Source: Gammaproteobacteria bacterium (GTDB lineage Bacteria > Pseudomonadota > Gammaproteobacteria > GCA-001735895). Taken from it: a DNA stretch of 36,333 nt. Below the pieces are notes generated by a model. The model was not told where the DNA came from. It did not search any database and worked only from the letters and a program-made list of their open reading frames with translations. Location: assembly GCA_024763185.1 (NCBI GenBank), contig JANTFY010000002.1, forward strand, positions 1 through 36,333. The letters run 5' to 3'. The translations under genes and the position numbers were made by a program. Positions 76-16,853 of this stretch are shown piece by piece (position 1 is the first letter of the stretch; each line of letters starts with the position of its first letter).

Positions 76-1079
76 GGTCTCCATTTTGTACTAGAAAAGC
101 CAACTTGAAGCTGGTGATGCGCGAGCGCCAGGTAGCAAATCCGGCGACAGTAACAATGCCCCCTTTTTGAAGAGATGCGCCAGTATTCGGTCTATGATTG
201 ACTGATCTTTAATACAGGCAATTATCCGGGCTTCGCCCCCGCACTTTGTGCAAATAGATACATCAATGTTGAAAACACGTTTGAGCATTTGCGCCCAGGT
301 CATTGCCTTGAGTCGCTTTTCTGGCATGCTGTCATCAATGGAATTTAGTGGACTTCCTTTTCCGCGTTTTGCCGGTGTCACATCTGCACGGAATTGTCTG
401 TTAGGCGCGAATACACCATGAAACCGTGTCAGATTCACCCTGGGCCTGGGTATGAGTGCAGCCAGTTTCGCGATGAAATCCATCGGCTCAAATATGACAT
501 GTGTGGTGCCGTCACTGTAGGGTGTTTTAAGCTGATAACGGATATTACCTGAAGATGTCAGAGAAATATGTCGTTCAGCGATAGCTGGCCTCGTGATATA
601 GCGACATAAATGCTCAAGCTTCTGCCGCTCCCAGACCTGAGTCGCCACCCGGGCGTGTAAACTGATTCCGGATTCTTTAGCCACCTGAGCAAACCGATCA
701 TCTTCATCCCAGGCAGGTATGGTTTGCAGGGTAAATACTTTCCGTCCTTGTTGCGGTCCCACGGTGATACGGTAACTAACCTTGCAACCGACTACCTGTT
801 GCATCGGGTCTTCATCAGCAGGCTCTAAATTTAAATAGCAATTCTCGGCTTAAGCATCCTGCGTCGCTCTACCTCCTGCATCCTTGCAGTCGTCATCGTC
901 CCGTTCGAGTATCCCTTCTCGCTCCAGAAATCCAGCCACCCGGCTGCTTAGCTTGTGGAGTAATTCTATCAATTCCTGTTGTTCCGGCTCGTTGATTCGC
1001 TTGAATCGCGTTTTACCGTATTGGTTCTTTATGAACACTCCGTCCAAAAACAGCATGTGGAAATGCACATTGAGATTAT

Positions 1080-1148
1080 TTCGGGCATCCTGCCCTCCAC
1101 CCCTACGGGGTCAGCCTTAGGCTGTTTAAAATCGTTTCCGACGATTTT
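1080..1148 (+). repeat. Copy B of a ~68-nt multi-hairpin repeat element, inserted in the transposase between QRFGSAL and NLNVHFH
   Basis: Sequence ttcgggcatcctgccctccacccctacggggtcagccttaggctgtttaaaatcgtttccgacgatttt. Four consecutive hairpins: GGGCA/TGCCC, CCCC/GGGG, CAGCC/GGCTG, AAAATCGT/ACGATTTT. About 78% identical to the reverse complement of 1467-1533 by my hand alignment. Confidence 0.85.
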
Positions 1149-1466
1149 ATCAAAGCACTGCCAAAACGTTGAATCAGCGTCACTGATCCGGTTTGCGCTG
1201 TTTTTCGGGTATAGCCGGATTTTTTGATCACATGGCCAGAAATTGCCCGATATACTATCCCAAGCGCTCTACTCATTAATTCCGGTCGGCTGGTAAAAAG
1301 AAACCGTAATTGAAATGGAAAACTTAATACCCTCGGCAATTGCTCCTGCATTGCCCTAATACATGCCATTCATGGCATTAACTGGCGTATGGATTGTTTT
1401 GGTAAAACCTCATTCACTAATAAAGCAGCACTTTCAGCCATACGCCTTACCCCGCAACTCGGGCAC

Positions 1467-1533
1467 AAAATCGTCTGGAGCGATTTTGAACAGTCGAAGA
1501 CTGGCCCAAAGGGCGGAGGGCTGGATGCCCGGA
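1467..1533 (-). repeat. Copy A of the same ~68-nt multi-hairpin element, opposite orientation, inserted between CKRRGF and CPSCG
   Basis: Reverse complement reads tccgggcatccagccctccgccctttgggccagtcttcgactgttcaaaatcgctccagacgatttt. The same four hairpins are kept (GGGC/GCCC, CCC/GGG, CAGTC/GACTG, AAAATCG/CGATTTT), with a compensatory change in the third stem relative to copy B. Confidence 0.85.
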
Positions 1534-1865
1534 GTAAAACCCTCTGCGCTTGCAGCTGAATGCGACCAGGTGCTCATGGTGGCAATGGGTGCATTGCACC
1601 CTCATGAATCCGTACTCCAATCGGCCACACTTGAGGAAGTCGTCAAACTCCTGTTGAACGTACAATGGCAATGCCTTGCCGTGACAGGTCATCATGTCCC
1701 TGAATTCTGGGTAATATCGTTCAACAATTTGATATAGAAGCGTCCTTTCAGGCTGATGACGCTGATAGAGTTGAGTTGGGGCTGATCCTTCCTTGATCGG
1801 TGCAGGTAACATGCGGCTCTCCTTTCCTTGGAGGGCCTTTTGTTCTCATAATATTCTCTATTAGA

Positions 1866-3405: not shown

Positions 3406-3478
3406 AAAAACCCCCCCCCGAAAGCAGGGTCTTTTTTAATCCGATTACATCAATTGCTTCTTATAAACCAGAAGCAAT
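3406..3478 (-). terminator. 3' hairpin region of the cold-shock gene
   Basis: Perfect 9-bp stem ATTGCTTCT/AGAAGCAAT (3453-3478) lies 21 nt after the stop. Next comes a GC stem flanked by A- and T-runs around a C9 tract (3406-3437). Confidence 0.45.
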
Positions 3479-3498
3479 CAACGCGAATAGAAATTAAA

Positions 3499-3702
3499 CT
3501 ATTCAGCTGTAACGTTTGCAGCCTGCGGGCCTTTAGGTCCTGATTCAACGTCAAAATTGACCGTCTGGCCTTCATTCAACACTTTGAAACCTGAACCCTG
3601 GATCGCAGAATAATGGACAAAAACGTCCGCACTGCCATCAGAAGGAGAAATAAAGCCGAAGCCCTTGGATTCGTTAAACCACTTAACGGTACCTGTAGTC
3701 AT
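3499..3702 (-). CDS. CspA-family cold-shock protein
   Basis: 67 aa. [15 protein letters not shown] (RNP1) and VFVHYSAI (RNP2). About 240 nt of upstream non-coding leader, as is usual for csp genes. Confidence 0.95.
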
Positions 3703-3941
3703 GATAATTACCTTTAAAAAATGAAAATATAATCATGTGCATATCACAACAAGGTAATTACAGGAAAGACCGGGGTGGAACTTCTGGCAAACTTAATGGA
3801 CGTGCAACTGATTGTAAAAAACCAACGCTTAATTGAATCTGCCAGGCATCTACAATTAAGGGTCAGCGTGATACAGTATATACCAAATAATTCACATTTC
3901 ACCTTTTTTTAAGGTGACCGGCATGGCTGCATAAAACTCTA

Positions 3942-5170: not shown

Positions 5171-5992
<822 letters not shown>

Positions 5993-11097: not shown

Positions 11098-11970
11098 ATG
11101 CTGAAGTCATCTTTTAACACCATCGGTTTAATTATACGCCAGCACAGCTCTGAGCATGGGGAGGCGATAGAGCAGATTTGCCATTCAATATCCAAACATG
11201 GTGAATTATTGATTCACCATCTGGATCAGGACATCGTACCTTCCTGTTATCCACCCTCACCCATTCGCCAAATCGGTGAACAGGCCGACCTGGTGGTATC
11301 TGTAGGTGGTGATGGTACATTACTGACCGCGGCCAGATATATGGTCGATTATGAAATTCCTCTGGTCGGTATCAACCTGGGCAGACTTGGATTTCTGGCC
11401 GATGTCACCATGGCTGAACTGGATCAGCATATCGCTTCAATCTTTAACGGGAACTACAGTGTCGAAAAACGTTTTCTGCTGGATGGTGAGATCCTGCTGG
11501 CGAACGCTGAGCAACAGACTCATCGAGCCCTGAATGACATTATTCTGCATAGCCACGAATCCATAAGCATGATCGAATTCGAAGTTTTTTCTGACGATCA
11601 ACTTATTAACAAACAACGTGCGGATGGCTTGATCGTGGCCACGCCAACGGGTTCTACGGCCTACGCCTTATCTGGAGGCGGCCCCATTCTTCATCCCGGG
11701 CTGGATACACTGGCTCTGGTCCCGATCTGCCCTCACACCCTGAGCAACCGCCCGATTGTATTACCTTCAGAACAGTGTATTGAAATTCGCCTGAGCAAAC
11801 CGGGAATGGAAGGTCGTTTGAGTTTTGACGGACAGACCCGGGGTATTCTGAACTTTGAGGATAAAATTAAAATAACCCGTCATCAGCGCGAAATCACACT
11901 GTTACACCCGGCCGATTATGATTACTTTCACATTTTACGAGCCAAACTCAACTGGAGTAACCAACCCTGA
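11098..11970 (+). CDS. nadK: NAD+ kinase
   Basis: GGDGTLL motif and the conserved ATPTGSTAYALSGGGPI segment. Lies divergent from hrcA-grpE, as in E. coli. Confidence 0.95.
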   Translation: MLKSSFNTIGLIIRQHSSEHGEAIEQICHSISKHGELLIHHLDQDIVPSCYPPSPIRQIGEQADLVVSVGGDGTLLTAARYMVDYEIPLVGINLGRLGFLADVTMAELDQHIASIFNGNYSVEKRFLLDGEILLANAEQQTHRALNDIILHSHESISMIEFEVFSDDQLINKQRADGLIVATPTGSTAYALSGGGPILHPGLDTLALVPICPHTLSNRPIVLPSEQCIEIRLSKPGMEGRLSFDGQTRGILNFEDKIKITRHQREITLLHPADYDYFHILRAKLNWSNQP

Positions 11971-13643
11971 TGCTGGATTCGATAGTCATTAACAATTTCA
12001 CCATTATCGATCGCAACCACATTGAGTTTAATCCCGGCATGACGGCCTTAACCGGTGAAACCGGTGCCGGTAAATCGATCTTACTGGATGCCATAAAACT
12101 GGTTCTGGGAGACCGCGCTGACAGTGACACGGTAAAAAGTGGTGCGGATAAAGCCGATATCACGGTGGGTTTTGATCTCACTTCACGTGAGCAGGCAAGG
12201 CATTGGTTAAAACAGAATGAACTGGACAATGACGGGGAATGTCTGATTCGGCGGGTTGTTCAGGCCAATGGACGCAGCAAGGCATTTATTAATGGCACCC
12301 CTGCGACGTTAAACCAACTAAAGATCCTGGGTGAAATGCTGGTGGATTTGCACGGCCAGCACGAACACCAGTCACTGCAAAAACCGCTCGTTCAACAGCA
12401 ATTGCTGGATGGCATGTTAGCGGACCAGGATCTGTTAACTGAAACCCGTTATCGCTTTGCCGAATGGAAACAATTGGCTGAACTGAAGGCCCAGGCGCTT
12501 GATCAATCTGCCGAGAAACAACAGCGTATCGATCTGTTAAAACTGTATACCCGTGAATTACAGGAGCTTGATTTAAAAGTCGGTGAGTTCCAGGACCTGC
12601 AGGACGAATACAACCGTTTATCCCATGCCGGCCAGATCATGCAGAGCATGTCTTCGATCATTGGCGATCTTTATGAACAGGAAGACTTTAATATCCAAAG
12701 CCGCTTATCGGCATGTTCATTGCTATTACAACAGCTCACCGAACTGGATTCCTCACTGGGTGAGCCGGACGAGTTGTTAAAAAATGCCCTGATACAAATT
12801 GAAGAAGCCGCATCGGAATTACGCAGCTATCACGACAACATTGATCTTGATCCTGCAAGACTGGACTGGTTAAACAACCGTATAAACGAGGCCCAGGGAT
12901 TGGCCAGAAAACATCAACTGGATGCTGATCAATTACCTGAATTCATGCAAAATCTGGAGCTGGAACTCGAACAGTTGCAGTTGAGTGAGCAGGATATTGA
13001 AAAAATCGATGAGCGCCTGAATGCTGCCGAACAGCAATATCTGTCAAGTGCACGCCAGCTATCGGACATGCGCAAGGAAACGGCGTTGAAATTGTCCGGG
13101 CAGATCAGTGCAGAAATGCAAACCCTGGGCATGCAGGGCGGACAATTTGAAATTCAGCTCACCCGCGATGAAAACCCGCAGCACTTCAGCCGCGATGGTG
13201 TCGACAAGATTGTTTTTCTGGTCAGTGCCAATCCCGGGCAGCCCCTGAAACCCATGAGCCGGGTTGCCTCGGGTGGAGAACTGTCTCGAATCAGTCTGGC
13301 CATACAGGTTATTTTAAGTGAGTCCAGCCTTATTCCGACCCTGATATTTGATGAAGTCGATAGTGGTATAGGTGGAGGTATTGCCGAGGTCGTCGGCCGT
13401 AAACTGCGCCAGATTGCCCTTAATCGCCAGGTTTTTTGTGTCACTCACCTGCCCCAGGTTGCATCGCAGGCGCATCATCACTACCAGGTCACGAAAACCA
13501 AAACGGATTCAACCACCACCACCGAGGTGGTAACGTTGGATCAGCAGCAACGCCTGGAAGAGATTGCCCGTATGCTTGGCGGTATGACCATCACCAACCA
13601 GACCCGTGCGCATGCCCAGGAAATGTTAGACAGTGTAGTCTGA
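11970..13643 (+). CDS. recN: DNA repair protein RecN
   Basis: 557 aa. Walker A GETGAGKS, a long central coiled coil, and a C-terminal SGGELSR signature with Walker B LIFDEVD. The start overlaps the nadK stop (TGATG). Confidence 0.97.
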   Translation: MLDSIVINNFTIIDRNHIEFNPGMTALTGETGAGKSILLDAIKLVLGDRADSDTVKSGADKADITVGFDLTSREQARHWLKQNELDNDGECLIRRVVQANGRSKAFINGTPATLNQLKILGEMLVDLHGQHEHQSLQKPLVQQQLLDGMLADQDLLTETRYRFAEWKQLAELKAQALDQSAEKQQRIDLLKLYTRELQELDLKVGEFQDLQDEYNRLSHAGQIMQSMSSIIGDLYEQEDFNIQSRLSACSLLLQQLTELDSSLGEPDELLKNALIQIEEAASELRSYHDNIDLDPARLDWLNNRINEAQGLARKHQLDADQLPEFMQNLELELEQLQLSEQDIEKIDERLNAAEQQYLSSARQLSDMRKETALKLSGQISAEMQTLGMQGGQFEIQLTRDENPQHFSRDGVDKIVFLVSANPGQPLKPMSRVASGGELSRISLAIQVILSESSLIPTLIFDEVDSGIGGGIAEVVGRKLRQIALNRQVFCVTHLPQVASQAHHHYQVTKTKTDSTTTTEVVTLDQQQRLEEIARMLGGMTITNQTRAHAQEMLDSVV

Positions 13644-16765: not shown

Positions 16766-16853
16766 TGGCGGAGAGCGAGGGATTCGAACCCCCGGACGGT
16801 TTCCCGTCAACGGTTTTCAAGACCGCCGCTTTCGACCACTCAGCCAGCTCTCC
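16766..16853 (-). tRNA. tRNA-Ser (anticodon UGA), CCA encoded
   Basis: Folded by hand: acceptor GGAGAGC/GCTCTCC, anticodon arm GCGGT-CTTGAAA-ACCGT (anticodon TGA), long variable arm (TGACGGGAAACCGTC), T-loop GGTTCGAATCC, discriminator G plus CCA. 88 nt. Confidence 0.9.

Follow-up and report, generated by a model that had tools for sequence, protein, structure and literature searches.

The window, a stretch of 36,333 nucleotides from a gammaproteobacterial contig (assembly GCA_024763185.1, JANTFY010000002.1), derives from a hydrothermal-vent metagenome and is chromosomal, with dnaK, dnaJ, dapB, grpE, recN and fur nearby. Its minus strand carries, at positions 91-1812, a pseudogene of an IS91/ISCR-like rolling-circle transposase (Y2 HUH) that is recognized through fragmentary matches to the Pfam profiles Zn_Tnp_IS91 and Y2_Tnp. 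The transposase frame shifts twice. When four insertions of 73, 71, 48 and 48 nt are excised, a single open reading frame of 493 amino acids is obtained, in which Zn_Tnp_IS91 covers positions 1-89 of 90 and Y2_Tnp positions 1-181 of 183; the best NCBIfam match of this restored protein is to ISCR clade Ia, at 574 bits under a cutoff of 925. These four miniature insertions are the sole lesions that kill the transposase gene. A Phd/YefM antitoxin and ParE toxin pair (1939-2208 and 2238-2546) directly adjoins the dead IS91 element. The same region also holds a cspA thermoregulator 5' UTR (3448-3829, minus strand; 79.3 bits in Rfam) preceding a 67-residue ORF (3499-3702, minus strand) that resembles a cold-shock protein.

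The two longer insertions are copies of one element, here called E. Copy A (1077-1149, plus strand, 73 nt) lies antisense to the transposase at the GSAL/NLNVHFH junction, between codons 181 and 182 of the restored protein. It consists of a 5' tail, TATTTC (1077-1082), followed by hairpin 1 (1083-1095, GGGCA-TCC-TGCCC), hairpin 2 (1099-1111), hairpin 3 (1112-1124) and hairpin 4 (1127-1149). Copy B (1466-1536, minus strand, read from 1536 to 1466; 71 nt) runs in the transposase sense and separates KRRGF from CPSCG at codons 92/93; its tail TACTCC (1536-1531) is followed by hairpins 1 (1530-1518), 2 (1514-1504), 3 (1503-1491) and 4 (1488-1466). The initial annotation, made from these letters only, had recognized the existence of both segments but drew them at 1080-1148 and 1467-1533; the true ends lie a few bases further out, as cuts at 1077-1149 and 1466-1536 are the only ones tested that restore both protein motifs in frame. 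The spacer that separates the copies (1150-1465) accordingly measures 316 bp and not the 318 bp first given, and no joint corresponding to the inversion or deletion that such a geometry might support was found between the copies in four metagenome runs.

Insertion is shown by a 1.5-kb contig from a different study (X4), about 93% identical to the window, which skips 73 nt (from 1076 to 1150) and 71 nt (from 1464 to 1536) and thus provides precise empty sites at both positions. The placement of the joints in this contig is ambiguous by at most 1 nt (1 nt for the 71-nt skip). The motif pairs had been taken to be normally contiguous in IS91 transposases, and homologues at two further loci (L043 and L054) indeed run uninterrupted across both sites, as do the Pfam profiles. 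An alternative, that this transposase lineage encodes the segments natively or that the inverted repeat arose by chance, could draw on the fact that copy B is open in two of three frames and that in-frame copies of E occur in another IS lineage. However, segments of 71 and 73 nt put the reading frame out of register, the X4 contig and the homologues lack the segments and a covariance model of the family (R1) scores copy A at 82.6 bits and copy B at 87 bits, with E-values of about 1e-18 that are rough owing to a shortened calibration. The empty sites together with the restored ORF refute the alternative, whose probability we consider negligible; the reading of insertions into a dead IS91 gene holds.

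The two 48-nt insertions (M48) represent a second family of mini-elements, related to E in style. Copy 1 (845-892, plus strand) introduces an in-frame stop after QDA, has a 2-nt placement ambiguity and is skipped over 48 nt by the X4 contig. It contains TACCTCC and a CTGCA-TCCT-TGCAG module similar to the 5' module of E, and it is highly repeated, as judged from local depths of 553 in X1 and 2102 in X4 over baselines of 48 and 21, respectively. Copy 2 (1333-1380, plus strand) introduces an in-frame stop after LMP, forms two hairpins (fold z-score -3.5) and is likewise skipped over 48 nt by X4; its 5' part, TCGGCAATTGCTCCTGC, is common to L047 and L013. The M48 consensus is approximately TCGGCAATTGCTCCTGC..TCTACCTCC-TGCATCC(A)TGCA-GTCG, and relatives lie 100-400 nt from E copies in L047 and L042.

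Copy A aligns with the reverse complement of copy B at 56 identical columns out of 73 (77%), with two gap columns, in close agreement with the earlier hand alignment (roughly 78%, two gaps). On either strand, the minimum-free-energy fold of both copies gives the same four consecutive hairpins that had been proposed, with z-scores of -4.4 to -6.3 over the strands (copy A -6.0, copy B -5.0) and none of 200 shuffles folding as well. Both of the paired differences reported between the copies are present, namely CAGCC/GGCTG versus CAGTC/GACTG in hairpin 3 and CCCC/GGGG versus CCC/GGG in hairpin 2. The covariation that this implied proves massive in stems 3 and 4 once many copies are aligned. When 24 copies are aligned with plain MAFFT, standard pairs make up 98.1% of cells and 13 of 25 pairs vary on both sides (eight of nine in stem 4, five of seven in stem 3); the observed pairing was reached by none of 500 shuffles, and slid controls gave 37-49%. 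Across 102 distinct copies, 96% of cells are paired, with 384 double-sided changes. By pair type, 95.2% are Watson-Crick, with 16 G·T (0.7%) versus 36 A·C on the displayed strand. The loops are TNC on the displayed strand and hence GNA on the complement, the loop of hairpin 1 being TCC in 94 of 102 copies. C(GNA)G triloops, for example in d(GCGAAGC), form unusually stable DNA mini-hairpins. The GNA triloops and the near-absence of wobble pairs suggest that selection acts on the hairpins as DNA, in the complementary strand (E'), and not on a typical RNA fold.

The mobile-repeat reading of the initial annotation called for further copies, and a search for them gave more than 200 members elsewhere, in genomes as well as metagenomes. 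Across 185,579 species genomes, a scan with the 20-mer GGGCATCCNGCCCTCCNCCC returned at least 119 loci, about 100 of those listed showing the whole element, and a metagenome scan returned at least 120; the two scans together give at least about 240 loci, mostly from Gammaproteobacteria. The hosts among the matches listed include Dyella, Rhodanobacter, Dokdonella, Thioalkalivibrio, Nitrococcus, Chromatiales and Thiotrichales, while those outside the Gammaproteobacteria are, again among the matches listed, two Bdellovibrio MAGs. R1 detects 107 copies in 100 sources. Searched with this covariance model with filters off, the 36-kb window holds no third copy, in line with the first inspection. E is 65-80 nt long, usually 68-73, and has no coding capacity. 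Its consensus reads (T/G)ACTCC GGGCA-TCC-TGCCC TCC (G/A)CCC-TTC-GGG(C) C, then stem 3, TT and stem 4 with the loop TCCNG; the 5' module, (T/G)ACTCC-GGGCATCCTGCCC-TCC-(G/A)CCC, is conserved, whereas the downstream hairpins drift in sequence with perfect complementarity retained. Tandem E-E dimers occur at four loci (L006, L079, L055 and L025). A BLAST search of plasmid and phage collections with the consensus gave no match, a pattern scan of viral contigs found none, and the Rfam search recommended for the window copies matched no family, either at the gathering threshold or at E-values up to 10. A literature search with the conserved hairpin sequence likewise gave no match, and keyword searches turned up only background on RtT. 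In none of this literature did we find the family described as mobile and dispersed, its TTCG target noted or its colonization of IS91/ISCR genes reported.

The ends of E and its empty sites define its mode of insertion. There are no terminal inverted repeats, the 5' end TACTCCGGGC being unrelated to the reverse-complemented 3' end CAAAATCG.. in direct reading, and there is no target-site duplication at the X4 empty sites, where the codons rejoin exactly. Of 48 target contexts, a set without tRNA-linked copies and those nested in a Xanthomonadales repeat, 40 have T at -1, 35 have T at +1, 28 have C at +2 and 24 have G at +3, which gives WT^TCG(A) as the target of E. Read on the complement, this becomes (T/C)NGA^A, and the positions beyond the displayed -1 T are weak. 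Non-tRNA targets fall in predicted hairpin loops no more often than controls do (36% versus 36%); tRNA targets, by inspection, lie in tRNA loops. The orientation of E relative to local GC skew is biased overall (83 versus 50), due only to tRNA-linked copies; for non-tRNA copies it is 27 versus 27, with no bias by the 8-kb local skew, which is a weak proxy. As for a candidate transposase, clustering of the neighbouring genes around the genome-scan loci (about 15 kb or less) returned only syntenic tRNA-operon neighbourhoods.

IS91-family genes are hit repeatedly. Among the matches listed, 8 of 119 genome loci and 22 of 120 metagenome loci have E in or at such a gene (approximately 8 and 23 copies), and the sites of E in restored-protein numbering are 79, 92, 182, 296-302, 355-361, 364-372 and 434. 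This bears out the target preference that had been offered as one option for the two hits in a single gene. Site 92 (RGF^CP) is occupied in the window, L191 and L202; since a close relative of the window IS has this site empty, the hits are independent and site 92 is a hot spot. An empty site is also available in L054 for the insertion of L017 and L010, which lies upstream of the tnpA start. Several IS copies have been struck more than once, namely those of the window, L066 and L046 (two E copies each) and L158. At site 434 (KRVF^NID), an in-frame E of 72 nt encoding 24 amino acids (LLRASCPPPFGPAFRLFQIAPGDLV) is found in eight loci with differing transposases, identical in seven (L200, L214, L207, L238, L126, L129 and L229) and one base off in L124. 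It belongs to a widely distributed IS91/ISCR lineage with the right end ..GGGCGTTTGAAnTnCCTATAC, and the lineage apparently tolerates the insertion and passes it on. A near-identical E amid differing transposases implies that this E-bearing IS lineage spreads as a unit and inflates the copy counts. The IS91 enrichment is therefore partly inflated, yet the distinct combinations of site and lineage still amount to roughly a dozen events, which would be far above the expectation from the small genomic share of IS91 genes.

A second major setting is the tRNA gene, with approximately 35 genome and 22 metagenome copies among the matches listed lying within 300 nt of one. Here, E sits in the T-loop of partial tRNA duplicates (GGAT^TCGAACC; Tyr, Gln, Ser and others) and also in the anticodon loop and D-loop region of tRNA-Ser fragments. 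The tRNA-linked E is always in a partial duplicate, with an intact tRNA alongside where the locus extends far enough. Excision of E from tRNA-Ser-like fragments as if it were a tRNA intron produced only one marginal tRNA-Ala call (L067), and with an intact tRNA adjoining, this possibility was rejected. The tRNA-linked copies form tandem units in which a tRNA 3' end is followed by E, by CGAACC..GGTTCTCATCC and by the complement of the tRNA 3' end, giving a conserved fold-back (L036, L079, L031, L060, L092, L104, L091 and, in E. coli, L122:700-1240). The 178-bp tyrT repeats of E. coli are likewise built with E in a partial tRNA duplicate next to an intact tRNA. The Rfam RtT model (RF00391) scores the E copy of L060, a tRNA-Tyr locus, at 48.2 bits against a gathering threshold of 45, and R1 in turn finds the three E. 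coli rttR units (E-values of 5e-5 to 3e-4), placed exactly behind the tRNA 3' fragment. The tRNA-linked members of E are therefore what Rfam calls RtT, including the E. coli rttR/tyrT repeats. To our knowledge, accounts of RtT treat it as an RNA or a cis-regulatory part of tRNA operons and not as a dispersed mobile element. At L060:7185-7348, a sub-threshold Rfam match to sX4 of Xanthomonas (30 bits) extends over the tRNA and the start of the RtT-like unit, and some catalogued sRNAs may be tRNA-linked E units. The sole tRNA of the window, tRNA-Ser(UGA) (16766-16853, minus strand), has no E-bearing partial duplicate beside it; in other genomes such duplicates lie alongside tRNA-Ser(UGA).

The remaining contexts are other repeats and a few protein genes. 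Approximately 36 genome and 24 metagenome copies among the matches listed are nested in a larger palindromic repeat of Xanthomonadales, with the composite structure TCTCTTGGTTACTTCTCTT..E..CAAAGAGAAGTGAC (L009, L034, L041, L061, L082 and about 30 other loci), and the repeat and its nested E seem to amplify as a composite. In a Bdellovibrio MAG (L011), an E-like segment of 66 nt (22 amino acids) is inserted in frame in purH at 5855-5920, leaving an open ORF of 542 amino acids, and another of 72 nt (24 amino acids) in purL at 2590-2661, leaving an open ORF of 1068 amino acids. A census of open frames among interrupted genes is noisy in high-GC genomes, and the convincing hosts are IS91, purH and purL only.

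E is not the only small element in IS91-family genes. In L158, such a gene (11100-13117, minus strand) carries at least five mini-insertions: one E, two elements of 45/48 nt that encode MPQGTLS, a stop and C, and two of about 51 nt with xGCA-(A)GGA-TGCx hairpins. The locus also holds a truncated second IS copy of 100% identity (L158:2840-3510), whose start coincides with the edge of a mini-insertion, and a GGCATGGATGCC hairpin lies at the right end of the IS. It is tempting, although we hold it only tentatively and doubt it somewhat, to see in E and the 48-nt and ~51-nt elements of this kind a guild of hairpin-only mobile elements without duplication or a transposase of their own, which would colonize single-stranded DNA, chiefly that of rolling-circle IS91/ISCR transposons and tRNA gene loops, would act as natural inactivators of ISCR and would have left the rttR/tyrT repeats as a fossil of the E family.

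Among known systems, E resembles in its workings the small palindromic elements of the REP, PATE and RPE (Rickettsia palindromic element) types. It was initially labelled as MITE- or REP-like; a small mobile hairpin repeat it is, but neither a classical MITE nor a REP. Like MITEs it is small, non-coding, multi-copy and non-autonomous, but it lacks terminal inverted repeats and a target duplication. With the REP/REPIN elements (RAYT, Y1 HUH) and the IS200/IS605 PATEs it shares a hairpin-based design, the absence of duplication and a short tag by a hairpin. The tag of E is TACTCC followed by the GCATCC hairpin, whereas the GTAG/CGTC tag of REP/REPIN is absent, and REPs are extragenic palindromes of 20-40 nt with one or two hairpins, whereas E has four over about 70 nt and occurs inside genes. 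PATEs of the IS200/IS605 type insert 3' of a fixed tetra- or pentanucleotide; the corresponding site of E, (T/C)NGA^A on the complement, is weak in its outer positions. Elements of the IS200/IS605 type are also expected to show an orientation bias with respect to replication (towards the lagging-strand template). E differs from them in the lack of such a bias among non-tRNA copies and of a cognate transposase among its neighbours, and as its hairpin 4 begins at the very end of the element, an IS608-type guide sequence would have no space there. The RPEs are likewise small palindromic selfish elements inside protein genes, sometimes in frame, as E is in purH, purL and IS91 site 434. However, E has no sequence relation to them, lives in other hosts, is shorter and has a defined target, WT^TCG, and the window copies, which shift the frame, are not insertions of the in-frame RPE type. 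With RtT, E shares a common core comprising the TACTC tail, GCCC-TTC-GGG, the further hairpins and the T-loop site GGAT^TCGAACC of the duplicated tRNA 3' end. The window copies differ from RtT in having no tRNA context, their flanks being transposase codons, and in falling below the Rfam model: RtT gave no match between 1000 and 1620 at E-values up to 10 and none at the gathering threshold over the whole window.

The two window segments are independent insertions of this small non-autonomous element, made without duplication at WT^TCG(A), and the family is widespread in Gammaproteobacteria and includes RtT; a single-stranded DNA stage is probably involved, and we consider this explanation as a whole likely. 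Two other explanations deserve weight. Non-autonomous rolling-circle elements, such as one-ended IS91/ISCR derivatives or Helitron-like elements, also lack a duplication, have a hairpin near one end and are closely associated with Y2 transposase genes. E could be a hyperparasite mobilized in trans by the IS91/ISCR Y2 transposase and landing preferentially in cis, in the gene of its helper. The replicated enrichment in IS91-family genes at no fewer than seven sites is strong and speaks for this, as do the two to five mini-insertions within single IS copies. The truncated IS of L158 begins as if the mini-insertion were a terminator, and the hairpin at the right end of that IS resembles those of the mini-elements. 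In the IS91 model, the strand that carries the GNA loops of E copies in tnpA sense is the displaced strand, and about 20 of the 25 in-gene copies are in that sense. The ends of E, however, are unlike the oriIS of IS91. The IS copies of seven loci finish in a canonical oriIS-like right end (..GGCGTTTGAA..CCTATAC, ending in GGGCGTTTGAAnTnCCTATAC) to which nothing in E is similar, and E is not inserted directly 3' of GTTC or CTTG. Moreover, most copies of E belong to tRNA loci or are embedded in other repeats, and their 8-kb loci are free of IS91 genes. We regard mobilization by the Y2 transposase as unlikely, though less so than the next alternative; E as a mini-IS91 was rejected, the oriIS consensus being absent from it.

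The next alternative is that E chiefly functions as a structured RNA module like RtT, be it as an sRNA, as a signal for processing or termination, or as a sponge for a protein that binds GGA loops (for example, a CsrA decoy), and that the IS copies are accidental duplicates. The overlap of the tRNA-linked members with Rfam RtT is in its favour, and E. coli rttR RNA is released from the tyrT transcript by processing, as cited in two reports (PMC3318445; bioRxiv 10.1101/2024.07.17.603846). On the complement of E, the linker and the loops of hairpins 1 and 4 contain GGA, and the excess of A·C over G·T on the displayed strand means that wobble pairs are tolerated on the complement. Yet the G·T/U share of paired cells remains unlike that of typical RNA families, the window copies occur in both orientations within a dead gene and match no Rfam family, and the precise empty sites and the in-frame ORF members indicate insertion at the DNA level. 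A structured RNA, which the initial annotation had kept as an option, is thus disfavoured, and we judge it improbable.

For a mobile E that inserts as DNA, a route can be outlined. The element would probably move, or be maintained and homogenized, through a single-stranded DNA stage in which the complementary strand E' folds. Rolling-circle transposition may expose IS91/ISCR genes as single strands and so make them favoured targets, and heavily transcribed tRNA genes possibly expose single strands as well. The lack of hairpin-loop enrichment, the lack of GC-skew bias in non-tRNA copies and the absence of room for a guide sequence count against the single-stranded route, and the partial tRNA duplications and the GGTTCTCATCC fold-back are not accounted for by a mobile E.

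If this explanation is correct, E represents a widespread class of bacterial mobile elements with four hairpins, no inverted ends, no duplication and a TTCG-type target. The tRNA-linked members are already catalogued as RtT; dispersed mobility, the TTCG target and the colonization of IS91/ISCR genes are apparently new. The RtT/rttR repeats have been known since the 1970s, and an origin is now offered for them, namely insertion of E into the T-loop of a duplicated tRNA 3' end. IS91/ISCR transposases are important vehicles of resistance-gene capture, and their recurrent inactivation by mini-elements raises the question of whether single-stranded DNA intermediates serve as targets or whether the rolling-circle transposase itself is parasitized. 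Finally, the in-frame copies in purH, purL and the transposase indicate that E can add peptide segments to proteins.
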